From: Escherichia coli
Lineage (GTDB): Bacteria; Pseudomonadota; Gammaproteobacteria; Enterobacterales; Enterobacteriaceae
Length of the DNA: 64,000 nucleotides
Direction: 5' to 3' (one strand)
Assembly: GCF_044324875.1 (NCBI RefSeq)
Contig: NZ_CP172185.1
Program-made: the position numbers and the translations under genes
Shown: positions 29,660 to 43,234 of the stretch, in pieces
Layout of the letters: every line of letters starts with the position of its first letter
How positions within the stretch are numbered: position 1 is the stretch's first letter
Notes under the pieces: generated by a model
Told to the model about the DNA's origin: nothing
The model's input: only the letters and a program-made list of their open reading frames with translations
Databases searched by the model: none

Positions 29660-31894
29660 ATGGTTGCGGTAAGAAGTGCACATATCAATAAGGCTGGTGA
29701 ATTTGATCCGGAAAAATGGATCGCAAGTCTGGGTATTACCAGCCAGAAGTCGTGTGAGTGCTTAGCCGAAACCTGGGCGTATTGTCTGCAACAGACGCAG
29801 GGGCATCCGGATGCCAGTCTGTTATTGTGGCGTGGTGTTGAGATGGTGGAGATCCTCTCGACATTAAGTATGGACATTGACACGCTGCGGGCGGCGCTGC
29901 TGTTCCCTCTGGCGGATGCCAACGTAGTCAGCGAAGATGTGCTGCGTGAGAGCGTCGGTAAGTCGGTCGTTAACCTTATTCACGGCGTGCGTGATATGGC
30001 GGCGATCCGCCAGCTGAAAGCGACGCATACCGATTCTGTTTCCTCCGAACAGGTCGATAACGTTCGCCGGATGTTATTGGCGATGGTCGATGATTTTCGC
30101 TGCGTGGTCATCAAACTGGCAGAGCGTATTGCTCATCTGCGCGAAGTAAAAGACGCGCCGGAAGATGAACGCGTACTGGCGGCAAAAGAGTGCACCAATA
30201 TCTACGCGCCGTTGGCGAACCGTCTTGGGATTGGACAACTGAAATGGGAGCTGGAAGATTACTGCTTCCGTTATCTCCACCCGACCGAATACAAACGCAT
30301 CGCAAAACTGCTGCATGAACGCCGTCTCGACCGCGAACACTATATCGAAGAGTTTGTCGGCCATCTGCGCGCTGAGATGAAAGCTGAAGGCGTTAAAGCT
30401 GAAGTGTATGGTCGTCCGAAACACATCTACAGCATCTGGCGCAAAATGCAGAAAAAGAACCTCGCCTTCGATGAGCTGTTTGATGTGCGTGCGGTACGTA
30501 TTGTCGCCGAGCGTTTACAGGATTGTTATGCCGCACTGGGGATAGTGCACACTCACTATCGCCACCTGCCGGATGAGTTTGACGATTACGTCGCTAACCC
30601 GAAACCAAACGGTTATCAGTCTATTCATACCGTGGTTCTGGGACCAGGTGGCAAAACCGTTGAGATCCAAATCCGCACTAAACAGATGCATGAAGATGCA
30701 GAGTTGGGTGTTGCTGCGCACTGGAAATATAAAGAGGGCGCGGCAGCTGGCGGCGCACGTTCGGGACATGAAGACCGGATTGCCTGGCTGCGTAAACTGA
30801 TTGCGTGGCAGGAAGAGATGGCTGATTCCGGCGAAATGCTCGACGAAGTACGCAGCCAGGTATTTGACGACCGGGTGTATGTCTTTACGCCGAAAGGTGA
30901 TGTCATTGATTTGCCTGCGGGATCAACACCGCTGGACTTCGCTTACCACATCCACAGTGATGTCGGACACCGCTGCATCGGGGCAAAAATTGGCGGGCGC
31001 ATTGTGCCGTTCACCTACCAGCTGCAGATGGGCGACCAGATTGAAATTATCACCCAGAAACAGCCGAACCCCAGCCGTGACTGGTTAAACCCAAACCTCG
31101 GTTACGTCACAACCAGCCGTGGGCGTTCGAAAATTCACGCCTGGTTCCGTAAACAGGACCGTGACAAAAACGTTCTGGCTGGGCGGCAAATCCTTGACGA
31201 CGAGCTGGAACATCTGGGGATCAGCCTGAAAGAAGCAGAAAAACATCTGCTGCCGCGTTACAACTTCAATGATGTCGACGAGTTGCTGGCGGCGATTGGT
31301 GGCGGGGATATCCGTCTCAATCAGATGGTGAACTTCCTGCAATCGCAATTTAATAAGCCGAGTGCCGAAGAGCAGGACGCCGCCGCGCTGAAGCAACTTC
31401 AGCAAAAAAGCTACACGCCGCAAAACCGCAGTAAAGATAACGGTCGTGTGGTGGTTGAAGGTGTCGGTAACCTGATGCACCACATCGCGCGCTGCTGCCA
31501 GCCGATTCCTGGAGATGAGATTGTCGGCTTCATTACCCAGGGACGCGGTATTTCAGTACACCGCGCCGATTGCGAACAACTGGCGGAACTGCGCTCCCAT
31601 GCGCCAGAACGCATTGTTGACGCGGTATGGGGTGAGAGCTACTCCGCCGGATATTCGCTGGTGGTCCGCGTGGTGGCTAATGATCGTAGTGGGTTGTTAC
31701 GTGATATCACGACCATTCTTGCCAACGAGAAGGTGAACGTACTTGGCGTTGCCAGCCGTAGCGACACCAAACAGCAACTGGCGACCATCGACATGACCAT
31801 TGAGATTTACAACCTGCAAGTGCTGGGGCGCGTGCTGGGTAAACTCAACCAGGTGCCGGATGTTATCGACGCGCGTCGGTTGCACGGGAGTTAG
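29660..31894 (+). CDS. relA: GTP pyrophosphokinase RelA ((p)ppGpp synthetase I)
   Basis: 744 aa. Confidence 0.95.
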   Translation: MVAVRSAHINKAGEFDPEKWIASLGITSQKSCECLAETWAYCLQQTQGHPDASLLLWRGVEMVEILSTLSMDIDTLRAALLFPLADANVVSEDVLRESVGKSVVNLIHGVRDMAAIRQLKATHTDSVSSEQVDNVRRMLLAMVDDFRCVVIKLAERIAHLREVKDAPEDERVLAAKECTNIYAPLANRLGIGQLKWELEDYCFRYLHPTEYKRIAKLLHERRLDREHYIEEFVGHLRAEMKAEGVKAEVYGRPKHIYSIWRKMQKKNLAFDELFDVRAVRIVAERLQDCYAALGIVHTHYRHLPDEFDDYVANPKPNGYQSIHTVVLGPGGKTVEIQIRTKQMHEDAELGVAAHWKYKEGAAAGGARSGHEDRIAWLRKLIAWQEEMADSGEMLDEVRSQVFDDRVYVFTPKGDVIDLPAGSTPLDFAYHIHSDVGHRCIGAKIGGRIVPFTYQLQMGDQIEIITQKQPNPSRDWLNPNLGYVTTSRGRSKIHAWFRKQDRDKNVLAGRQILDDELEHLGISLKEAEKHLLPRYNFNDVDELLAAIGGGDIRLNQMVNFLQSQFNKPSAEEQDAAALKQLQQKSYTPQNRSKDNGRVVVEGVGNLMHHIARCCQPIPGDEIVGFITQGRGISVHRADCEQLAELRSHAPERIVDAVWGESYSAGYSLVVRVVANDRSGLLRDITTILANEKVNVLGVASRSDTKQQLATIDMTIEIYNLQVLGRVLGKLNQVPDVIDARRLHGS

Positions 31895-31989
31895 TCTTAC
31901 ATAGCTGGATATGGCGTCAGCCGTATCCAGCGATATCTTTTACTCGAAGGTATTACACCTGACAGACCCGCAATTTTCAGGACAATTCA

Positions 31990-32781
31990 ATGAATCAAAT
32001 CGACCGTTTGCTCACTATTATGCAGCGCCTGCGCGACCCGGAAAACGGCTGCCCGTGGGATAAAGAGCAGACATTTGCCACCATTGCGCCTTACACCCTT
32101 GAAGAAACCTACGAAGTGCTGGACGCCATCGCCCGTGAAGATTTTGACGATCTTCGCGGTGAACTGGGCGATCTGCTATTCCAGGTGGTGTTTTACGCGC
32201 AAATGGCTCAGGAAGAAGGGCGCTTTGACTTTAATGATATTTGCGCTGCTATTAGCGATAAATTAGAGCGTCGCCATCCGCATGTTTTTGCTGACAGTTC
32301 TGCCGAAAACAGTAGTGAAGTGCTTACCCGTTGGGAGCAAATCAAAACCGAAGAGCGCGCGCAGAAAGCGCAGCATTCAGCGCTGGACGATATTCCTCGT
32401 AGTTTACCGGCTTTAATGCGTGCGCAAAAAATCCAGAAACGTTGCGCCAACGTTGGTTTCGACTGGACGACGCTTGGTCCGGTAGTCGATAAAGTCTACG
32501 AAGAGATCGACGAGGTGATGTACGAGGCGCGGCAGGCTGTTATCGACCAGGCTAAACTGGAGGAGGAAATGGGTGACCTGCTGTTTGCCACGGTCAACAT
32601 GGCACGCCATTTAGGGACAAAAGCAGAGATTGCACTACAAAAAGCCAATGAAAAATTCGAGCGCCGTTTTCGCGAAGTGGAGCGTATTGTTGCCGCGCGT
32701 GGACTGGAAATGACAGGTGTTGACCTCGAAACAATGGAAGAAGTCTGGCAACAGGTAAAACGGCAGGAAATTGATCTCTAA
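31990..32781 (+). CDS. mazG: Nucleoside triphosphate pyrophosphohydrolase MazG
   Basis: 263 aa; tandem MazG domains. Confidence 0.9.
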   Translation: MNQIDRLLTIMQRLRDPENGCPWDKEQTFATIAPYTLEETYEVLDAIAREDFDDLRGELGDLLFQVVFYAQMAQEEGRFDFNDICAAISDKLERRHPHVFADSSAENSSEVLTRWEQIKTEERAQKAQHSALDDIPRSLPALMRAQKIQKRCANVGFDWTTLGPVVDKVYEEIDEVMYEARQAVIDQAKLEEEMGDLLFATVNMARHLGTKAEIALQKANEKFERRFREVERIVAARGLEMTGVDLETMEEVWQQVKRQEIDL

Positions 32782-34718: not shown

Positions 34719-36032
<1,314 letters not shown>

Positions 36033-36050: not shown

Positions 36051-36084
36051 AAAAAATGCCAGCCTTCGGGCTGGCATTTTTTAT
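36051..36084. terminator. Bidirectional rho-independent terminator between convergent eno and the TPM operon (A6-TGCCAGCC-TTCG-GGCTGGCA-T6)
   Basis: 8-bp GC stem with a tetraloop, flanked by an A-run and a T-run. Confidence 0.75.
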
Positions 36085-36091
36085 GGTTGAG

Positions 36092-36985
36092 TTACCAGCG
36101 ACCGGACGCGCCGCCACCGCCAGAAGAACCGCCCCCGCCGCTAAATCCGCCGCCACTTGAGCCGCCACCGGAAGAGGATGAAGAAGAACCTTTTCTTGAA
36201 GCTCTTTCTTTACTGAGTTTTTTGTATTTGGCGCGTAGCTTTTTATTAACGATAAGCCAAAAAATAACCAGTGGTACGATAGCAAAAGGCGTGAGCATAC
36301 CGCAGGCAACGATTAAATTCGTCCATGGTCCTGGCTCGGCAACATAGAGGAATACCATCCCATAAATTCCGCCAGTCAGTGCTATCCAGGGTAAATTCGA
36401 CGGATCGGTAAAAACAATAAAATATGAAAGTACCGCCAGCAATATAATTACAGCAAGCGATAATGGAATAGGGGGATTGATACTGTAATAATCCCCCCTG
36501 TCTTCCGGTAATTCACCATTCAACAGAAGCGCTCCGATATTTTCGCTTGCCAGTGTTAACCCACCCATCAAGTCATCACTTTTGAAGGCTGGGATTAATA
36601 TATTACGGATAATCTTCGCTGCTTGCAGATCGGTAACCACCCCTTCCAGCCCGTAGCCCACTTCTATACGGACAGCATGATCTTCCCAGGCAACCAGCAG
36701 TAAAATACCATCGTTTCGCTGCTTATCTCCCAGTTTCCAGCTATCAAAAACGCGTGTTGCATATTGTTCAATGGTATCGTCTCCGGTGGATGGCACTATT
36801 AATACGGCGACCTGGGCCCGTGTTTTTTGTGTGATATCCTGCAGCTGTTGTGTCAGTGATTGTTGTTCAGACGTGCTTAACGTACCAGTAATATCGGTCA
36901 CCTGTTGGCGCAGCTCCGGCACAGCAATTTGCTGGGCAAGCCCAGGAAGGCACCATAAAGTAAGTAGAAAAAAGATTAAGCGCAT
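36092..36985 (-). CDS. TPM-domain (YgcG-like) membrane protein, paralog A: signal peptide, periplasmic TPM domain, 3 TM helices, Lys-rich segment, Gly/Ser tail ending SGRW
   Basis: 297 aa; TPM core NDGILLLVAWEDHAVRIEVGYGLEGVVTD; C-terminus GGGSSGGGFSGGGGSSGGGGASGRW. Confidence 0.85.
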   Translation of the reverse strand: MRLIFFLLTLWCLPGLAQQIAVPELRQQVTDITGTLSTSEQQSLTQQLQDITQKTRAQVAVLIVPSTGDDTIEQYATRVFDSWKLGDKQRNDGILLLVAWEDHAVRIEVGYGLEGVVTDLQAAKIIRNILIPAFKSDDLMGGLTLASENIGALLLNGELPEDRGDYYSINPPIPLSLAVIILLAVLSYFIVFTDPSNLPWIALTGGIYGMVFLYVAEPGPWTNLIVACGMLTPFAIVPLVIFWLIVNKKLRAKYKKLSKERASRKGSSSSSSGGGSSGGGFSGGGGSSGGGGASGRW

Positions 36986-36990
36986 AATGA

Positions 36991-38139
36991 TTACCAGCGT
37001 CCGGATGAACCGCCGCCTCCTGAAGAACCACCACCACCGCGGAAAGAATTTCTCGACGAAGAGCGAGAATGAGCATTACGATTCCCCGTTTTCCTGTTGC
37101 TTTTTTCTCCTGACCCCAGTTTAAGATTGCCAGTAAATTTGGCCACAATGATCAGCAGAACTATGCCAGCAATGGTTATTGGGCCGATAAAATGATCAAT
37201 TAGCCCAATAATTGTTGAGATGAATGCAATATCTTTATTACTGGCGAACACCAGGCACCATCCCACAATAATTATCAGCATCACGACAAACAATGAATTT
37301 CGTCCTGATTCACGAACCTGCGGAGTCTTCTTTTGTTTTTTCACTTTAGTGTTTTTATTTTTGGGGGCCAGCATCATAGGAAATGCGCGGCACATATTAA
37401 AAACTACCGCGAGACGCTGCCAGCAGGTTGTTGCTAACAATAAACTAAAACAAACGACCGATACCCGCCGAATGATGACATCGTCCTGAAAGGAGAAAAA
37501 CCAGACCATAGGGGTAATCATCGATATCATCCATATGCCACGCCCTGGGCGGCTGGCAAATCGCCAGAGGACAACGATGGCAACGATCATCAGCAGTGTC
37601 CAGGCAAGACAAGGCAGCGAACGTTGCGGATTAGCAAACAGATGATTGGCTAAAGCATCCAAAGGGCTAAGGTTCGCTTTGATATGGGTAAACTGTGCGA
37701 TGCTTTCAATTCCGCCCGTTAATCCAGCAAAGAGATTGTTTTTTTCGAATTCTGGCTGCATATGGTAACGAACAATTTGCGCAGCTTGTTCCGGCGGCAA
37801 CATCTGTTCCAGTCCATGTCCAATCTTCATTGACGCCAGCCCTTCCGGCCATACGACGAGAATTAAGATACCTTCGCCATATCGCTTCTCTCCAACGGGT
37901 TTCCAGTGATATACCCCGTATCTCTGCGAGGCTGCAAGTTTAATGTTTTTGCCCCCTGTGGTCGGCGTGACCAACACGGCCACCTGGAAGTGGTTTTGCT
38001 GCACGAGAGTCTGTAATTGTTGAGTTAAAGCAGTTTGTTCTTCTGTCGTTAATGTCCCGGTTAAGTCAGTTACTGAAGGCAATTGTTCAGCGAATACCTG
38101 AAAACCGCATAGCATCAGAAGTAAGAGAAAAATACGCAT
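36991..38139 (-). CDS. TPM-domain membrane protein, divergent paralog B, with extended polytopic membrane region and Gly/Ser-SGRW tail
   Basis: 382 aa; signal peptide, divergent TPM-like domain (GILILVVWPEGLASMKIGHGLE), at least 4 TM helices, tail GGGGSSGGGGSSGRW; SD aaggaa upstream. Confidence 0.8.
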   Translation of the reverse strand: MRIFLLLLMLCGFQVFAEQLPSVTDLTGTLTTEEQTALTQQLQTLVQQNHFQVAVLVTPTTGGKNIKLAASQRYGVYHWKPVGEKRYGEGILILVVWPEGLASMKIGHGLEQMLPPEQAAQIVRYHMQPEFEKNNLFAGLTGGIESIAQFTHIKANLSPLDALANHLFANPQRSLPCLAWTLLMIVAIVVLWRFASRPGRGIWMISMITPMVWFFSFQDDVIIRRVSVVCFSLLLATTCWQRLAVVFNMCRAFPMMLAPKNKNTKVKKQKKTPQVRESGRNSLFVVMLIIIVGWCLVFASNKDIAFISTIIGLIDHFIGPITIAGIVLLIIVAKFTGNLKLGSGEKSNRKTGNRNAHSRSSSRNSFRGGGGSSGGGGSSGRW

Positions 38140-38153
38140 ATCAATTCCTTTTG

Positions 38154-39047
38154 TTACCAGCGCCCGGAAGCGCCACCGCCACCAGATGAACCGCCACCAC
38201 CGCTGAAATTGTCATTGTTGAATGAAGAGGATGACGATGATGAATAGTGGGAGGAAGAATTGCTTCTTGTATGGCGTGATGGCTGGTTGGCATCACGCAT
38301 CGAATCCCGAACCTTTTTGCCGAAGGGGGTAAAAGCGATGGCGACAGCCAGGAACGGTGTGGCGAAGCAGAGTAATGTTGCGAGTACTCCCCAGCTTCCG
38401 CTGAAGCCTGCTATAGGTAAAACAAAGGCCAGTACAATAGCTGCGAAGCAAATTACTCCCAGCGTTTTGATATATCCTCTGGCAGAAATAAACGTCAGTA
38501 CTATCGCCCAGACTAACAAAGCCCACCAACCGCTAAAAGGCAAAGGGTGATCGGTCGGTGTTATCGTTGCTAAATTATTCCCCGTCAGACGACTTTCAAT
38601 ATCGCTGATTCCCTTTTGCAAACCACCAGCCAGGTCCCCTTTTTTAAATGCCGGAATAATACTGTTGCGAATAATTTTCCCGGACTGTGCATCCGTAATA
38701 ATACCTTCCAGTCCGTAACCGATTTCAATACGCACGGTATGATCCTGCCAGGCGACTAACAGTAGAACGCCATCATCGTGGTCTTTATCACCCGGTTTCC
38801 AGCTATCGAATACCCGCGTTGCGTACTGCTCGATGGTTTCATCGCCTGTTGTTTCAACCACTAACACGACCAACTGTGCGTTGTTTTTTTGCGTCAGGGC
38901 TTTAATCTGGTTGGTCAGGGTGTTTACTTCACTGTTTGTCAATGTGCCGGTTAAGTCATTCACATACCTGGGTGATTCAGGTACTGGAATTTGTGTGGCA
39001 AACACAGATGAACAGAAGAAAGCCATAAGGAAGATAAAATTTCGCAT
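38154..39047 (-). CDS. TPM-domain (YgcG-like) membrane protein, paralog C, with Gly/Ser-SGRW tail
   Basis: ORF track gives 38154..39077; preferred start is ATG 39047 (MRNFIFLMAFFCSSVFA signal peptide) with SD ggggaag; TPM core DDGVLLLVAWQDHTVRIEIGYGLEGIITD. Confidence 0.85.
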   Translation of the reverse strand: MRNFIFLMAFFCSSVFATQIPVPESPRYVNDLTGTLTNSEVNTLTNQIKALTQKNNAQLVVLVVETTGDETIEQYATRVFDSWKPGDKDHDDGVLLLVAWQDHTVRIEIGYGLEGIITDAQSGKIIRNSIIPAFKKGDLAGGLQKGISDIESRLTGNNLATITPTDHPLPFSGWWALLVWAIVLTFISARGYIKTLGVICFAAIVLAFVLPIAGFSGSWGVLATLLCFATPFLAVAIAFTPFGKKVRDSMRDANQPSRHTRSNSSSHYSSSSSSSFNNDNFSGGGGSSGGGGASGRW

Positions 39048-39060
39048 ATAACTTCCCCGC

Positions 39061-39663
39061 TTAATGCGCATTAGCATTCTGGCTAAAATCTATTATTGGT
39101 GCTTTACTCACAGCTGCGACGTCATCCGGCAAATAATTTTTCTTCGGTGTGTAATCCATGACCTTTGCGGTTAATACAGCGGGGAATTTGCGGATAGTGA
39201 CATTATATTGTTCAATGGCTTTAATATATCTTCCTCGCGCAACGGCAATTCTATTTTCACTTCCTTCGAGCTGTACCATTAAATTTTGATAGAGTTCCTG
39301 AGCTTTTAAATCAGGGTAACGTTCACTAATTATCGTTAACTGACCGAGAGTGCGAGACACCTGCGCCTGGGCTTGTTGCCAGGCTTGTAATTTTTGCGCA
39401 TCTCCCGGAGCTTGCTGAAGATCGCTACTGGCGCGATTAGCCTGGCTACGTGCCAATGTTACGGCTTCCAGTACCTCTTGTTCATGGCTGGAATAACCTT
39501 TAATACTGGCGACAAGATTAGGAATAAGATCGGCGCGACGTTGATATTGATTCAATACCTCAGACCAGGAGGCGTTAACCTGCTCATCATAGGTTTGAAT
39601 ATCGTTATATCCACAGCCTGATAAATTGGCAATAAATATAATTACGATGAATATCCTGAGCAT
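39061..39663 (-). CDS. LemA-family protein, predicted lipoprotein (lipobox LSGC), first gene of the lemA-TPM operon
   Basis: 200 aa; LemA family architecture. Confidence 0.8.
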   Translation of the reverse strand: MLRIFIVIIFIANLSGCGYNDIQTYDEQVNASWSEVLNQYQRRADLIPNLVASIKGYSSHEQEVLEAVTLARSQANRASSDLQQAPGDAQKLQAWQQAQAQVSRTLGQLTIISERYPDLKAQELYQNLMVQLEGSENRIAVARGRYIKAIEQYNVTIRKFPAVLTAKVMDYTPKKNYLPDDVAAVSKAPIIDFSQNANAH

Positions 39664-39835
39664 GTCTATGTCCCTTTTAATTAATTCCTTAAAACATAAT
39701 ACGCCGCTTCATTTTATTCTTTATGATCTCATCCACTTTTTGCCTTAAACCTGCCTGTAACAGAATGTTAATAAGACATGATTGTTGTGGCAGGATCTGC
39801 AATAATTAACAATTATCCACTTCACAGAGAATGCT

Positions 39836-40507
39836 ATGCAGTACCCGATTAACGAGATGTTCCAGACCCTGCAAGGTGAGGGTTACTTTACCGGCGTCCC
39901 CGCCATTTTTATTCGTTTACAGGGATGCCCGGTTGGCTGTGCCTGGTGCGACACCAAACACACCTGGGAAAAGCTTGAGGATCGGGAAGTCTCCCTTTTC
40001 AGCATTCTGGCGAAGACCAAAGAGAGTGATAAGTGGGGGGCGGCGAGCAGTGAAGACTTGCTGGCTGTCATTGGTCGCCAGGGATACACCGCGCGGCATG
40101 TGGTGATTACGGGTGGTGAGCCTTGCATTCATGATTTGCTGCCACTGACTGACCTGCTCGAAAAGAACGGTTTTAGCTGCCAGATCGAAACCAGTGGTAC
40201 TCATGAGGTACGCTGCACACCGAATACCTGGGTTACCGTATCGCCAAAGCTGAACATGCGCGGCGGCTATGAAGTGTTGTCACAGGCACTGGAGCGAGCC
40301 AACGAAATCAAGCATCCAGTGGGACGCGTACGTGATATTGAAGCACTGGATGAACTACTGGCAACACTGACCGATGATAAACCGCGAGTCATTGCACTGC
40401 AGCCGATTAGCCAAAAGGATGATGCTACTCGTTTATGTATCGATACGTGCATTGCGCGCAACTGGCGTTTGTCGATGCAAACGCATAAATATTTAAATAT
40501 TGCCTGA
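39836..40507 (+). CDS. queE: 7-carboxy-7-deazaguanine synthase QueE (radical SAM)
   Basis: 223 aa; CxxxCxxC-type motif CPVGCAWCD. Confidence 0.9.
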   Translation: MQYPINEMFQTLQGEGYFTGVPAIFIRLQGCPVGCAWCDTKHTWEKLEDREVSLFSILAKTKESDKWGAASSEDLLAVIGRQGYTARHVVITGGEPCIHDLLPLTDLLEKNGFSCQIETSGTHEVRCTPNTWVTVSPKLNMRGGYEVLSQALERANEIKHPVGRVRDIEALDELLATLTDDKPRVIALQPISQKDDATRLCIDTCIARNWRLSMQTHKYLNIA

Positions 40508-40845: not shown

Positions 40846-41118
40846 GAGTTCCCCGCGCCAGCGGGGATAAACCGCTTCATCTGTCGGGCTAACTGGACAA
40901 AGAAACGAGTTCCCCGCGCCAGCGGGGATAAACCGTCGGTTTGACATCAAAGAAGCCATCAATCAGGGAGTTCCCCGCGCCAGCGGGGATAAACCGGTCT
41001 GGCCATAGGAACAAAGAAATTTGTCTTTGAGTTCCCCACGTCAGCGGGGATAAACCGGACACAGAGCGCCGCTATAGCGCCTATGCCAAGAGTTCCCCGC
41101 GCCAGCGGGGATAAACCA
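40846..41118 (+). CRISPR. Type I-E CRISPR array (CRISPR2.1 position): 5 repeats of 29 bp (GAGTTCCCCGCGCCAGCGGGGATAAACCG) and 4 spacers of 32 bp each
   Basis: Repeats at 40846, 40907, 40968, 41029 (variant CCCCACGTCAG) and 41090 (terminal, ...AAACCA); spacers at 40875-40906, 40936-40967, 40997-41028 and 41058-41089; regular 61-bp periodicity. Confidence 0.95.
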
Positions 41119-41586
41119 CCATATAACCCGTTATCTCTTTCTCAAGTTTTTATATTAGCAGTACTTGTAATAAGCAACATATCCACGTAACACCTCATGT
41201 TCAAAATAGTTCTCCATGCCAGAGAAGTTCACAATTATCGATACAAAAAATTAAATTTAATCAAAGTGTTATTTGTATGATTCTTAAATCGTTAAGAAAT
41301 TTTAATATATTATTTTTTTAATATTAATTAATGCCTGTTAATTTTTTCTTTAGAATAACAGTGTATTTTTTAAGCTTATTATTCATTGATTAAGTAATAA
41401 ATCTGGAAATTTGTCTTTGTTTTGAGGCTAATGAGTGATTTTACATAATCGCCTCTATACGCTGTTGATGAATAGTTCTTATGAATAAAGATATCCAGTT
41501 CATACTTTAAGTGAAAATTGATAAAGTGCGATTCGTATTGTCTTTTATTCTAAAGACATCGAGTGTAGTTAATATTCCTTGTAAAA

Positions 41587-41709
41587 ACAGGGATAAACCG
41601 AACTAGTTAAAGTTTTTATTATGTTCCCTGCATCAGCGGGGATAAACCGGACTTGTTATCATTTTTTAAGTTGTCGAACTTATGTTCCCCGCGTCAGCGG
41701 GGATAACCA
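41587..41709 (+). CRISPR. Degenerate mini-array (CRISPR2.2-2.3-like remnant): truncated repeat, then 2 variant repeats (ATGTTCCCTGCATCAGCGGGGATAAACCG; ATGTTCCCCGCGTCAGCGGGGATAACC) with one 32-bp spacer and one about 20-bp spacer
   Basis: Repeat-like units at 41587-41600 (partial), 41621-41649 and 41682-41709; spacer at 41650-41681 is 32 bp. Confidence 0.7.
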
Positions 41710-41755
41710 TTCAGGTATGTTCAGGCCGGGCAGTTTCCCGCCCGGTCTTCCTCAC

Positions 41756-43234
41756 TTACGCATTCGACCAGCTCTGGATCGAATCTTCATTCCCCAGCTC
41801 ACCATGCATCACTTCATACGATTTTTTCAGGATCACATCAGTGTGTTTGGTTAGGTCTTTGAAAATGCCTTTATTCATCGCGTTGTAGCGTTTGGCGTTG
41901 CTCTCAACAGGCATAAAGATATCTTTCACGCGAACCATTTTGTCGACAGCCGTTGCGTAATCCGGGTATAGCCCCAGACCTACCGCCGTATTAATCGCTG
42001 CCCCCAGGCTTGCACAACCATTAATGGCGTTACGGCGTGCCGGAAGGTTGAACACGTCGGCAAAAATCTGCATAAACAGATCGCTGTTCGAACCGCCGCC
42101 AGTAATGATCACATGCTTTGCAAAGTGATTCATTTCATTACACATATTGTCGTAATTGTTCTTCAGCGTCAGCGCCACGCTTTCCAGTATCGAACGATAT
42201 ATCCATGCGTAATCCATGCTGGAATCAAAGCCAATCATAATCCCGCGTTTGTACGGTTCCCACGGATTGGTCAGCCAGTCCAGCACCGTCATCAGACCAT
42301 TACAGCCTGGCGGCACACAAGAAGCTTTTTTGTTGAGTAAATCTTCCGGTGAAAGATCCTGCGCCCTGGCATCCTGAATTAACGACTCGCCTAGCATGTC
42401 GCGCAGCCAGCTCACCGTCCACATGCCTTTGCGAATACCGTAACCTTCATACAGCAAGGTTTGCGGAATAGAAGACATAATCGGCCAGTACGCTACCGGA
42501 TCTTTCGGCAGTACTTTGCCGTTCATCATCAACGCGATGTAAGTGCCAAGAGAAATTACCGCAGTTTCATCATCCAGTAACCCGGCTCCCAGTGCTTCTA
42601 CCGGTTTATCACTGGTGGTACAAACAACCGGCAGCCCAGCCGGGAAATGTGTCGCCAGCGCGGCTTGAGGAGTGATATGCCCAAGAACAGTGCCCGGCAT
42701 TTGCACATCAAACAGCATATGACGGGGGATATTAAACTTCTCCATGACTGCGGCATCTTCACTCCATGCCCAGGTCTTATAATCCACCGGCCACTGACCA
42801 AAATAGTTGGCGATATTGTCTTTAAACTCGCCGGTTAAGCGATGCGTCAGATAACCCGAAAAAGAGGTGACATATGCCACGTCAGGATTCGTATGTTCGT
42901 AAGGGCGTGTAACGCGTGCATCCTGCCAGCTAATCAACGGCGCAGCTGGCGTGCCATCGGCTTTCAATAACGCACGGCAGCAACGGATGGATCCCAGACC
43001 AATACCGACAATATCTTCTTTATTTCCGGCAAACTGACTCATCAAATCGTGACCGGCAAAGCATAATGATGCCCATAAATCGTCGTCAGGATGTTCTGCG
43101 GTATCGGCATCTGGCGTGTGCATCGGCTGCAATAAGCCTTTGCCTTCGCAAACCACATTACCTTCCAGATCGTACATCACCACTTTTGTGCTCTGACTTC
43201 CACCATCAATCCCTATGATGTATTTTTTCGACAT
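41756..43234 (-). CDS. ygcE: FGGY-family carbohydrate kinase
   Basis: 492 aa; FGGY N-terminus IGIDGGSQSTKVV. Confidence 0.9.
   Translation of the reverse strand: MSKKYIIGIDGGSQSTKVVMYDLEGNVVCEGKGLLQPMHTPDADTAEHPDDDLWASLCFAGHDLMSQFAGNKEDIVGIGLGSIRCCRALLKADGTPAAPLISWQDARVTRPYEHTNPDVAYVTSFSGYLTHRLTGEFKDNIANYFGQWPVDYKTWAWSEDAAVMEKFNIPRHMLFDVQMPGTVLGHITPQAALATHFPAGLPVVCTTSDKPVEALGAGLLDDETAVISLGTYIALMMNGKVLPKDPVAYWPIMSSIPQTLLYEGYGIRKGMWTVSWLRDMLGESLIQDARAQDLSPEDLLNKKASCVPPGCNGLMTVLDWLTNPWEPYKRGIMIGFDSSMDYAWIYRSILESVALTLKNNYDNMCNEMNHFAKHVIITGGGSNSDLFMQIFADVFNLPARRNAINGCASLGAAINTAVGLGLYPDYATAVDKMVRVKDIFMPVESNAKRYNAMNKGIFKDLTKHTDVILKKSYEVMHGELGNEDSIQSWSNA

Follow-up and report, generated by a model that had tools for sequence, protein, structure and literature searches.

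The window analysed here, a 64,000-nucleotide stretch of an Escherichia coli genome (NCBI RefSeq assembly GCF_044324875.1, contig NZ_CP172185.1), contains four genes between eno and queE, which encode one LemA-family protein and three TPM-domain proteins (TPM_A, TPM_B, and TPM_C), at a site where K-12 carries yqcG and ygcG. What this gene set is, how it relates to the K-12 locus, and why it contains three TPM genes are the questions that we address below.

Organization of the locus

The four minus-strand open reading frames matched the original prediction exactly in coordinates and gaps (Table 1). The intergenic gaps were 13 nt (lemA–TPM_A), 14 nt (TPM_A–TPM_B), and 5 nt (TPM_B–TPM_C), and the Shine-Dalgarno-like sequences GGGGAAG and AAGGAA were found before TPM_A and TPM_B, respectively. 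TPM_A has a second in-frame ATG at 39077, which overlaps lemA; the start at 39047 was favoured because it has the GGGGAAG ahead of it, gives a normal signal peptide, and corresponds to the 297-aa form in the protein collection. The only convincing terminator was located after the last gene, where a hairpin and T-run begin 10 nt past the TPM_C stop codon. With gaps of at most 14 nt, one upstream region, and a terminator after TPM_C, the locus is packed in the operon-like manner that had been claimed, and from the spacing we infer that lemA-tpmA-tpmB-tpmC are co-transcribed as a single operon.

Table 1. Features of the eno–queE interval in the window.
Feature	Position	Strand	Remarks
eno	34734-36032		flank of the four-gene set
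Bidirectional terminator-like hairpin	36051-36082		common to TPM_C and eno; AAAAAATGCCAGCC-TTCG-GGCTGGCATTTTTT
TPM_C	36092-36985	minus	297 aa; signal peptide, TPM domain, 3 TM helices, very basic segment, tail; allelic with K-12 ygcG
C-terminal motif of TPM_C	36095-36139	minus	
TPM_B	36991-38139	minus	382 aa; signal peptide, degenerate TPM domain, 5 TM helices with Lys-rich loop, tail
C-terminal motif of TPM_B	36994-37038	minus	with SSGRW
TPM_A	38154-39047	minus	297 aa; signal peptide, periplasmic TPM domain, 3 TM helices, basic Ser-rich linker, C-terminal motif
C-terminal motif of TPM_A	38157-38201	minus	GGGGSSGGGGASGRW
lemA	39061-39663	minus	200 aa; LemA-family lipoprotein, lipobox LSGC, Gly at position +2
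lemA/queE divergent intergenic region	39664-39835	minus	sole non-coding stretch upstream of the operon
7-codon upstream ORF	39689-39712		within the lemA/queE intergenic region
Inner ATG of the 7-codon upstream ORF	39695-39697		position of the K-12 yqcG start codon
queE	39836-40507		flank of the four-gene set

The promoter is presumed to lie in the lemA/queE intergenic region, since this is the sole upstream non-coding stretch. A scan of this region for the sigma-70 consensus found none. The 105 nt nearest queE were identical in all five aligned alleles, and divergence started beyond them. In the homologous K-12 region, a sigma-S ChIP peak (PMC4447067) and binding of phosphorylated PhoP (PMC4974570) have been reported, and the RefSeq product name for YqcG is 'cell envelope stress response protein YqcG'. 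By analogy with these K-12 data, which come from a region identical only in its queE-proximal 105 nt, the operon is probably stress-linked, and transcription would probably start from a stress-linked promoter region common with queE. A CRISPR array adjoins the locus in Escherichia (40846-41117 in the window), and an array was also found beside the Klebsiella locus (L006).

A LemA lipoprotein and three TPM proteins

In a profile search, LemA matched PF04011 over the whole profile (1–149 of 149; E = 2e-48, 164.4 bits, cut-off 26.2), and phmmer matched its residues 22–177 to the solved LemA structure PDB 2ETD (E = 6.9e-33). Its lipobox is part of a segment, L-[ST]-G-C-G-Y-N, that all 14 aligned LemA proteins from gamma- and beta-proteobacteria retained, and LemA was 52–58% identical to proteobacterial homologues outside the Enterobacteriaceae. 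By these matches, LemA is a predicted periplasmic lipoprotein with a LemA four-helix-bundle domain.

The three TPM proteins all matched PF04536 (cut-off 22.1 bits), TPM_A with E = 7.6e-41 (139.5 bits), TPM_B with 5.1e-20 (72.2 bits), and TPM_C with 6.9e-39 (133.2 bits). All three start with a Sec-type signal peptide, followed by a domain of ~150 aa and a hydrophobic block, and finish with a basic tail rich in Ser and Gly. The hydrophobic block contains three helices in TPM_A and TPM_C and five in TPM_B. The family assignments, the lipoprotein status of LemA, and the TPM architecture (signal peptide, domain, three to five helices, and tail) had all been proposed from the letters of the window, and each was confirmed.

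In the AF2 model of TPM_A, the domain had block-mean pLDDT values of 86–97 and an alpha/beta/alpha sandwich fold, with target-normalised TM-scores of 0.78–0.90 on 5ANP, 7TBR, and 2KW7 (0.88–0.90 with an rmsd of 1.6–1.8 Å on BA41, 5ANP). In the TPM_B model, the strands and helices of the domain followed one another in the same order (block-mean pLDDT mostly 76–90), with five helices after the domain. These models are consistent with inner-membrane proteins whose TPM alpha/beta/alpha domain would face the periplasm and be anchored by three or five helices.

The three paralogs differed in conservation. TPM_A and TPM_C kept 41 and 40 of the 51 family-conserved columns, respectively, and neither lost any of the 13 columns with conservation of at least 95%, among them invariant Asp, Glu, and Gln positions. 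TPM_B kept 24 of the 51 and nine of the 13, the four losses including a D-to-P change at an invariant Asp. Relatives of its membrane block were found in only 12 representative clusters of 1.84 billion; these comprised a single full-length representative, Escherichia B, along with shorter matches at 68–98% identity and three at 37–41%, and the block was confined to Escherichia and Klebsiella. When the window genes were compared with those of O157, CFT073, E. albertii, and another Escherichia lineage, all four genes were under purifying selection, with dN/dS of 0.04–0.15 for lemA, 0.15–0.20 for TPM_A, 0.22–0.33 for TPM_B (the highest of the four), and 0.09–0.12 for TPM_C, that is, 0.04–0.33 across comparisons. 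The lost columns, the rare membrane block, and the highest dN/dS bear out the original prediction that the middle paralog has diverged. The LemA-linked YgcG-type TPM class comprises proteins encoded immediately downstream of lemA that have a signal peptide, a TPM domain, and a hydrophobic block and end in GGGG-x-(F/S)-GGGG-A-S-G-x-W-COOH. TPM_A and TPM_C fit this class in full, and TPM_B fits it by architecture, with S for A in the motif.

A glycine-rich C-terminal motif

The tails of TPM_A, TPM_B, and TPM_C end in GGGGSSGGGG(A/S)SGRW. Across 59 proteins the family logo was [SG]GGGG-x-F-GGGG-A-S-G-x-W-COOH, with W as the terminal residue in every one. Judged by this alignment, the glycine tail is a family-wide, position-specific C-terminal motif rather than simple low complexity. 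In some lineages the motif of B has decayed to SSVRW or GDSFGRR or has lost its final W.

AF2 predicted a strand at residues 288–296 of TPM_A, with a mean pLDDT of 90 in the final block. Tail position −2 covaried with residue 104 in the manner of a charge swap, exactly one of the two being basic in 105 of 115 sequences; the MI z-score of this pair was 16.9, whereas the best of 600 control column pairs reached 13.4, a control that leaves some effect of shared ancestry. Together, the model and the covariation suggest that the tail docks on the TPM sheet, the pairing partner of the strand being presumed. The C-terminal motif would then probably be a beta-strand docking on the edge strand of the sheet, residues 104–110, much as AscG completes AscF and the BA42 tail completes its own sheet, and such docking could control self-association or autoinhibition. 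Docking in trans, with tails exchanged among TPM_A, TPM_B, and TPM_C, would build a heteromeric TPM array and would account for the identical tail of three paralogs whose membrane blocks are unrelated.

However, hydropathy and the positive-inside rule predicted a cytoplasmic tail and a periplasmic TPM domain, which conflicts with docking of the tail on its own domain. For docking to occur, either a cytoplasmic receptor would have to exist or the protein would have to adopt an atypical topology, for instance by crossing the membrane an even number of times or by passing its Gly/Ser linker through an oligomeric bundle of helices. On balance we consider it unlikely that the GGGGASGxW segment docks as a beta-strand on the edge strand of its own or a paralog's TPM sheet. 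If true, docking would be the first mechanistic handle on the LemA-TPM module; LemA-TPM pairs are widespread, and the motif and its covariation with one domain residue provide a concrete, cheaply testable structural hypothesis. Should that hypothesis lead nowhere, the locus would count as one more accessory envelope operon of an ordinary kind, with annotation already in place in more than 1,000 genomes.

Alleles within E. coli and the K-12 locus

Among 5,426 complete E. coli genomes, ~20% had the four-gene form, ~72% the K-12 form, and ~6% a third form, which confirmed the variability within the species that had been anticipated. The three main alleles have replaced interiors between conserved flanks. 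All four open reading frames were intact in eight of ten sampled four-gene loci, and the O157 allele has an ATG-to-ACG change at the lemA start and a nonsense codon in A. The module would be dispensable, since it has been lost or has decayed in most E. coli and in O157.

K-12 had been expected to differ at this site by carrying a single ygcG. The difference was real, but K-12 has a 46-codon gene, yqcG, in addition to ygcG. K-12 yqcG is superimposed on the leader of lemA and the codons of its signal peptide. Homology between the window and K-12 extends from queE across the leader and 11 codons into lemA, with 26 of 33 nt matching in these codons. The tail-coding 3' end of K-12 ygcG was 96% identical to that of the window TPM_C gene over a shared 274-nt segment, and the third TPM gene of CFT073 was ~95% identical to K-12 ygcG at the DNA level. 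K-12 YgcG and the window TPM_C had ~44% protein identity and unrelated membrane blocks; two unrelated versions of the TPM_C block are known.

The K-12 locus is like the operon in its chromosomal site and promoter-proximal sequence, with ygcG as an allele of the third TPM gene, but it lacks TPM_A and TPM_B, and its lemA is reduced to about the first 11 codons, read within yqcG. From this comparison, K-12 yqcG and ygcG appear to be an eroded remnant of the four-gene operon. This origin and the apparent family-wide, position-specific nature of the tail go beyond the original prediction. The remnant reading would give the K-12 small protein YqcG an evolutionary origin and calls for caution when yqcG and ygcG phenotypes are interpreted. 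The full operon, the decaying O157 version, the truncated third allele, and the K-12 relic form a natural allelic series at one E. coli site, a ready genetic system in the best-studied bacterium.

Distribution outside E. coli

E. albertii (L010) and another Escherichia lineage (L011) carry these four genes in the same chromosomal position, with C missing from one E. albertii type. At this site Klebsiella has LemA, an A-like TPM protein, and a B-like protein without a TPM domain. In 58 evaluable LemA loci of other bacteria, exactly one tail-type TPM gene lay directly downstream in 51, and two or three were found in none. A short cytoplasmic TPM gene, absent from the window operon, was present in 13 of these loci. 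By this survey the TPM triplication is lineage-specific, since a second tail-type TPM gene was found in none of the 58.

The basic unit elsewhere thus appears to be LemA with one tail-type TPM protein, as in P. aeruginosa (L007), where lemA is likewise followed by a gene for a signal peptide, TPM domain, TM block, and GGGGASGxW tail. The window differs in having three tail-type TPM genes and a degenerate B with a lineage-restricted five-helix block. The three-gene set would be an expansion seen in Escherichia, part of which (A and the B-like protein) seems to be already present in Klebsiella. TPM_A and TPM_C shared only ~42% identity, yet the TPM domain of each was 58% identical to that of a TPM protein present as a single copy in another enterobacterium, which argues that both are old and have been kept separately. 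From the genomes compared, the four-gene set is apparently old within the genus Escherichia.

Comparison with known systems and possible roles

The searchable literature yielded no paper on this operon or on the mechanism of the LemA-TPM pair, and none characterising such pairs, in agreement with the original description of them as functionally unassigned. Related proteins have been studied in other contexts. The closest solved structure to TPM_A is BA41 of Bizionia argentinensis (5ANP, 35% identity), whose deposited sequence ends in GGGGASGGW; BA41 and BA42 (4OA3) differ from the operon proteins in that they were solved as isolated domains without a LemA context. AscF of the mycobacterial CIII-CIV supercomplex has a TPM fold whose sheet is completed by a strand of the small membrane-anchored partner AscG; it acts as an adaptor, binds neither metal nor nucleotide, and is a precedent for the proposed tail docking. 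Unlike the operon proteins, AscF is cytoplasmic, is part of a respiratory supercomplex, and has neither a LemA partner nor a glycine tail (identity ~15–16%).

An extracytoplasmic TPM domain attached to a membrane anchor is also found in Psb32 and TLP18.3, which serve photosystem II repair and assembly, and in CcoZ, which serves the cbb3 oxidase; these proteins are auxiliary or assembly factors for membrane complexes. The NCBIfam search of the operon proteins gave sub-threshold matches only. The Psb32 model (NF047379) gave 34–35 bits (TPM_A 35.1, TPM_C 33.6) against a cut-off of 160, with no match for TPM_B, and these proteins were rejected as Psb32 equivalogs. MamQ, a magnetosome LemA-family protein implicated in membrane remodelling, likewise carries its LemA domain behind a membrane anchor at the N terminus, whereas the window LemA is a lipoprotein without magnetosome context and was rejected as a MamQ equivalog (NF040966, 93.8 bits, cut-off 250).

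In the literature, TPM domains have been described as adaptors or assembly factors (AscF, CcoZ, and YdjH with PspA) and in photosystem II maturation or assembly proteins (LMTP1, TLP26, and Psb32), and LemA-like domains as membrane-proximal scaffolds. We tentatively favour, at slightly less than even chances, a reading in which the four genes are one operon, the complete form of the yqcG-ygcG relic locus, and a dispensable accessory envelope module with a LemA scaffold and TPM adaptors. Such a module may maintain the inner-membrane/periplasmic face of the envelope. In this reading LemA would probably act as a scaffold close to the membrane, TPM_A and TPM_C would probably contribute adaptor or assembly-chaperone domains for membrane-associated clients, perhaps with weak phosphatase or NTPase activity, and TPM_B would be a degenerate, lineage-specific structural subunit. 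The multi-subunit complex of the original prediction is weakened by natural variants lacking parts of the set (O157, the E. albertii type, Klebsiella, and the ~72% of E. coli with the relic).

Such variants also bear on a simpler, somewhat unlikely explanation, that the TPM genes are tandem paralogs with redundant roles, sitting in a slowly decaying locus where one LemA-TPM pair would suffice. The single tail-type TPM gene in 51 of 58 loci (two or three in none), the relic state of ~72% of E. coli, the O157 lesions in lemA and A, the E. albertii type without C, and the decay of the B motif all fit redundancy. However, all three TPM genes are under purifying selection across the E. coli/E. albertii divergence, A and C are only ~42% identical compared to 58% with a single-copy TPM, and the distinct architecture of B is conserved between Escherichia and Klebsiella.

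It is quite unlikely that TPM_A and TPM_C act through their TPM domains as periplasmic phosphatases or nucleotidases and that the operon would be a phosphate or nucleotide processing system, as analogy with other family members might suggest. A and C retain all 13 most conserved columns, including the invariant Asp, Glu, and Gln, and ATPase/ADPase activity of BA41 and phosphatase activity of TLP18.3 and Rv2345 have been reported (cited in PMC13456599). However, metal sites are unconserved in the family and differ among solved members, AscF binds neither metals nor nucleotides, and TPM_B lacks four of the most conserved residues. The enzymatic activities reported in the TPM family are weak. The locus gave no hint of a substrate, and its NCBIfam matches were all sub-threshold.

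Compared to the accessory envelope module, it is very improbable that this is a diversifying surface or defence locus, with variable membrane proteins as targets of, or protection from, phages, colicins, or contact-dependent toxins: the three alleles with replaced interiors, the two unrelated C membrane blocks, and the CRISPR arrays beside the locus in Escherichia and Klebsiella would fit, but PADLOC gave no significant match (none for LemA, A, and C, and one weak match for B at E = 0.0069 over a hydrophobic stretch), the operon proteins have no nuclease, NTPase, or sensor domain, LemA and TPM form a simple gene pair in many genomic settings unrelated to one another, and the dN/dS values are far below 1. 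The CRISPR array found here is presumably the known queE-ygcE array, so its proximity is likely coincidental.

Organization of the lemA–TPM locus

Between eno and queE, the sequence check located four open reading frames on the minus strand, encoding a LemA-family protein (LemA) and three TPM-domain proteins (TPM_A, TPM_B, and TPM_C), with exactly the coordinates and the intergenic gaps of the original prediction (13, 14, and 5 nt for lemA/TPM_A, TPM_A/TPM_B, and TPM_B/TPM_C, respectively). SD-like motifs preceded TPM_A (GGGGAAG) and TPM_B (AAGGAA), and the gap of only 5 nt suggests termination–reinitiation coupling for TPM_C. TPM_A has a second candidate ATG at 39077 that overlaps lemA; the start at 39047 was preferred because it follows the SD-like GGGGAAG, yields a normal signal peptide, and gives the 297-aa form present in the protein collection.

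The only sizeable non-coding stretch upstream of the genes is divergent with queE, and the only convincing terminator follows TPM_C. The four genes are operon-like in anatomy, and their co-transcription is predicted. A consensus scan for sigma-70 promoters gave none in the intergenic region and one weak site inside lemA, and Rfam at gathering thresholds found no structured RNA between 35900 and 42000. The lemA leader contains a short upstream ORF (ATG AAG CGG CGT ATT ATG TTT TAA), and its internal ATG corresponds in alignment to the yqcG start of K-12.

Features of the lemA–TPM locus and its surroundings
Feature	Coordinates	Strand	Length	Remark
relA	29660-31894
relA–mazG gap	31895-31989		95 nt
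mazG	31990-32781
Terminator	36051-36082			Hairpin + T-run, common to eno and TPM_C; 10 nt past TPM_C stop
TPM_C	36092-36985	-	297 aa
TPM_B	36991-38139	-	382 aa
TPM_A	38154-39047	-	297 aa
lemA	39061-39663	-	200 aa
Upstream non-coding stretch	39664-39835		172 bp
Leader ORF	39689-39712	-	7 codons
Type I-E CRISPR repeats	40846-41117			Five repeats (GAGTTCCCCGCGCCAGCGGGGATAAACC), 61-nt period, between queE and ygcE
Degenerate CRISPR repeats	~41572-41713			Two or three, in an AT-rich stretch (31-39% GC)
ygcE	41756-43234			FGGY-family kinase gene

Protein families and predicted topology

The proposed family assignments held in Pfam, far above the curated cut-offs: LemA belongs to PF04011 (E = 2e-48), and TPM_A, TPM_B, and TPM_C to PF04536 (E = 7.6e-41, 5.1e-20, and 6.9e-39, respectively). 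Scores for the NCBIfam equivalogs MamQ and Psb32 were well under their cut-offs, placing the proteins outside those specific families. LemA matched 2ETD, a LemA protein of solved structure (E = 6.9e-33). It is a lipoprotein by sequence, as predicted, with the lipobox LSGC, and the motif L-[ST]-G-C-G-Y-N was conserved in all 14 aligned gamma- and betaproteobacterial homologues (50-83% identity to the window protein). The Gly at +2 predicts an outer-membrane location under the established Asp(+2) Lol-avoidance rule.

An AlphaFold2 model of TPM_A, built from a 71-sequence alignment, had block-mean pLDDT values of 86-97 across the domain. It superposed on BA41 (PDB 5ANP) with a target-normalised TM-score of 0.88-0.90, an rmsd of 1.6-1.8 A, and 35% identity, followed in the structural ranking by 7TBR, 2KW7, TLP18.3, BA42, Psb32, and AscF. 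Hydropathy and models bore out the expected 3-5 TM helices, with three after the domain in TPM_A and TPM_C and five in TPM_B. The segment past the last helix is strongly basic (7-9 K+R versus 1-3 D+E), and by the positive-inside rule the TPM domains are therefore predicted to be periplasmic and the tails cytoplasmic. In the P. aeruginosa TPM protein P0038, the first loop is basic and the second acidic, which makes three spans hard to avoid. A phmmer search with the TM-and-tail segment, aimed at counting the TM helices of BA41, did not retrieve 5ANP.

Three alleles within E. coli

The locus proved variable within the species, as anticipated, with three alleles among 5,426 complete E. coli genomes. 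The four-gene type, which contains TPM_B, occurred in 1,102 genomes (20%), the K-12 yqcG-ygcG junction in 3,931 (72%), and a third allele, consisting of lemA, a truncated A-like TPM gene, and two hypothetical genes, in 340 (6%). In the third allele (L002), the A-like gene is shortened to 234 aa, and genes for a 120-aa hydrophobic and a 57-aa protein replace TPM_B and TPM_C (1689-2253 of L002); neither hypothetical gene had a Pfam match. The 57-aa ORF overlies, in a different frame, a remnant of the A-like 3' end that encodes the glycine tail (L002 2087-2140).

More than 1,000 E. coli genomes already have this four-gene locus annotated; in O157:H7, CFT073, and numerous further strains, RefSeq names its products "LemA family protein" and "TPM domain-containing protein (x3)". 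The exact LemA and TPM_C sequences of the window were each found in at least 1,000 contigs, and the exact TPM_B sequence was absent from the protein collection searched. In E. coli CH4796, the closest relative found (99% identity to the window), an IS4 element lies between eno and TPM_C (L003 1741-3087).

All four ORFs were intact in eight of ten sampled four-gene loci. The other two, both O157-type (L004 and L096), had an ATG->ACG change at the lemA start and a TTA->TGA nonsense mutation at about codon 225 of TPM_A. Together with SSVRW in the tail of TPM_B in the O157 lineage, these changes point to lineage-specific decay of the operon in O157. In O157, where ACG replaces the lemA start codon, PGAP annotates an extended ORF with a non-standard start. 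Several RefSeq records (L003, L005, L095, L097, and L099) flag TPM_A as "incomplete; missing C-terminus". The flagged ORFs (894-909 nt) have neither a stop nor a frameshift, and the labelled genes were intact in the ten sampled loci, so that the label appears to be an annotation artefact. The flag probably stems from the Ser/Gly-rich end or from evidence based on the truncated O157 protein.

The K-12 junction as an apparent relic

The original prediction placed a single ygcG between eno and queE in K-12. The gene is indeed there, but alongside the 46-codon yqcG. DNA homology between K-12 and the window extends from queE across the leader and as far as codon 11 of lemA, with 90% identity over 39631-40000. 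The 105 nt nearest queE were identical in all five alleles aligned, and K-12 and the window matched at 53 of the following 82 nt and at 26 of the 33 nt of lemA codons 1-11; farther on, similarity fell to chance level. The yqcG start codon aligns with the window ATG that TTT TAA follows, and a 1-nt deletion puts yqcG in frame with the lemA signal-peptide codons, so that YqcG appears to derive from the beginning of a lemA gene that has since been lost. A lemA remnant in the 3' part of yqcG was also sought; global alignment gave no credible match past about codon 11, and an apparent similarity between "DAAV" of YqcG and "VAAV" near the LemA C-terminus was dropped.

A simple deletion of the window allele does not account for K-12, since ygcG is only ~44% identical to TPM_C and matches instead the third TPM gene of CFT073 (~95% DNA identity). 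Among the ten sampled four-gene loci, this 873-nt CFT073/K-12-like type of TPM_C occurred in four and the window type in six; the two types share the same tail and have unrelated membrane blocks. From these comparisons, the K-12 yqcG-ygcG pair appears to be a relic of a four-gene locus.

Distribution beyond E. coli

A four-gene set of the same make-up was found at the corresponding site in E. albertii and another Escherichia lineage, with one E. albertii type missing TPM_C. At the same site, Klebsiella spallanzanii carries LemA, an A-like TPM protein, and a B-like protein that keeps the membrane block, Lys-rich loop, and tail of TPM_B without the TPM domain. The 120 best LemA matches, many of them lacking an organism name, included no named entry from Salmonella, Citrobacter, or Enterobacter. 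Plain LemA–TPM pairs occurred at other genomic sites in P. aeruginosa and another enterobacterium.

Among 80 diverse LemA loci surveyed, the sequence downstream was long enough for evaluation in 58. Exactly one tail-type TPM gene lay directly 3' of lemA in 51 of the 58, and none had two or three. Because no locus had more than one, the triplication is, on this sampling, a lineage-specific elaboration of the LemA–TPM pair, a common two-gene module. In 13 of the 58, there was an extra TPM gene of ~165 aa without a signal peptide, ending NELPDxPVVL and absent from the Escherichia locus; its product is presumably cytoplasmic. The extra gene adjoins the tail-type TPM gene directly 3' (L018, L021, L025, L027, L036, and others).

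Divergence of the three paralogs

The three TPM proteins are not equivalent, judging by their constraint. TPM_A and TPM_C retained 41 and 40 of 51 family-conserved columns, respectively, and all 13 columns conserved at ≥95%; TPM_B retained 24 of 51 and nine of 13, its losses being A->V, D->E, G->Q, and D->P, the last at an invariant Asp. The dN/dS ratios were 0.04-0.15 for LemA, 0.09-0.12 for TPM_C, 0.15-0.20 for TPM_A, and 0.22-0.33 for TPM_B. With the lowest column retention, the highest dN/dS, and a rare membrane block, TPM_B is the diverged paralog that had been proposed. Relatives of its membrane block were found in 12 of 1.84 billion representative clusters, comprising Escherichia TPM_B, with a single full-length representative, three matches at 37-41% identity, and shorter ones at 68-98% identity. 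B-like proteins without the TPM domain were traced to Klebsiella, and the tail motif of TPM_B has decayed in some lineages.

TPM_A and TPM_C are only ~42% identical to each other, and their TPM domains are each 58% identical to that of a TPM protein present in single copy in another enterobacterium, which indicates that the duplication is old. This pattern fits subfunctionalisation, with TPM_B as a putative degenerate structural subunit. That the paralogs are simply redundant and decaying is a somewhat less likely alternative, favoured by the single tail-type TPM gene of other LemA loci and by the decay in O157 and in the tail of TPM_B, and opposed by purifying selection on all three genes and by the age of the duplication. 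Natural variants in which the set is incomplete speak against an obligate TPM_A/TPM_B/TPM_C complex.

A putative docking signal in the C-terminal tail

The last 16 residues of 59 LemA-linked TPM proteins followed the pattern [SG]GGGG-x-F-GGGG-A-S-G-x-W, with almost invariant glycines and W last in all 59; on this conservation, the glycine-rich end is more than low complexity. The flavobacterial BA41 ends similarly to the window TPM proteins (GGGGASGGW). In the TPM_A model, residues 256-285 were disordered (pLDDT <50) and residues 288-296 formed a predicted beta-strand (final-block mean pLDDT 90). An isolated strand would have to pair with another, and all other strands of the model belong to the TPM sheet, which suggests that the tail docks on this sheet. 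The literature offers a precedent in AscF, whose sheet is completed by a strand of its partner AscG.

Covariation is a second line of evidence that suggests docking. Tail position -2, counted from the C-terminal end, covaried with the column that holds T104 of TPM_A, the residue at which strand 104-110 begins. In 105 of 115 non-redundant sequences, one of these positions was basic and the other was not (both were basic in six, neither in four). The MI z-score was 16.9, compared with a maximum of 13.4 and a 99th percentile of 8.4 for 600 random column pairs, and the runner-up domain column reached only 6.1. Among closest-relative pairs differing at position -2, residue 104 flipped in the compensating direction in 24 of 36. 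Tail position -11 was D or N in 13 of the 115 sequences, and a mostly-Asp domain column (89 of the 102 others) was Gly in nine of these 13; this is a possible second compensating pair and may be a single-clade effect.

Docking conflicts with the predicted topology, in which the membrane separates the tail from the domain. Tat export, with the domain folding in the cytoplasm together with the tail, was rejected: only 13 of 150 N-termini in the family carry an RR-like motif, the others being ordinary signal peptides of the Sec type. It is conceivable that the ~165-aa TPM protein is a receptor for the cytoplasmic tail in the loci that encode it.

Possible function

The searchable literature yielded no experimental work on this operon, and a search by O157 locus tags matched only an unrelated paper. 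Several leads concern stress and the envelope. A sigma-S ChIP peak lies in the homologous K-12 promoter region (PMC4447067), phosphorylated PhoP binds upstream of queE, and queE expression rises on yqcG deletion (PMC4974570). The RefSeq product name for YqcG is cell envelope stress response protein, and an F. columnare sppA mutant that shows envelope defects up-regulates both lemA and a TPM gene (PMC13236525). In published work, TPM domains serve as adaptors of membrane complexes or help in their assembly, and LemA-like domains are described as membrane-proximal four-helix scaffolds. From these leads and descriptions, we infer that the locus may be a dispensable, stress-linked module for envelope maintenance.

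That the TPM domains are periplasmic enzymes is an unlikely alternative, favoured by the ≥95% columns that TPM_A and TPM_C keep and opposed by the loss of four of these in TPM_B. A defence or diversifying locus is very improbable, a PADLOC scan for anti-phage defence having returned no meaningful match. Overall, the original observation was confirmed and its interpretation upheld in part. The LemA–TPM module is widespread but uncharacterised, the window locus being its triplicated, lineage-specific variant; the present analysis adds the K-12 yqcG-ygcG pair as an apparent relic and a testable, topologically puzzling docking signal in a conserved C-terminal motif.

Neighbouring features

The short relA–mazG gap leaves no room for mazEF, the toxin-antitoxin pair that sits between these genes in K-12. 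Degenerate CRISPR repeats lie between the array of five and ygcE. The Klebsiella spallanzanii locus has a CRISPR array built of this kind of repeat (L006 6858-8468), filling the space from the B-like gene to eno. With the window array on the queE side and that of K. spallanzanii on the eno side, CRISPR arrays flank the locus at one end in Escherichia and at the other in Klebsiella.
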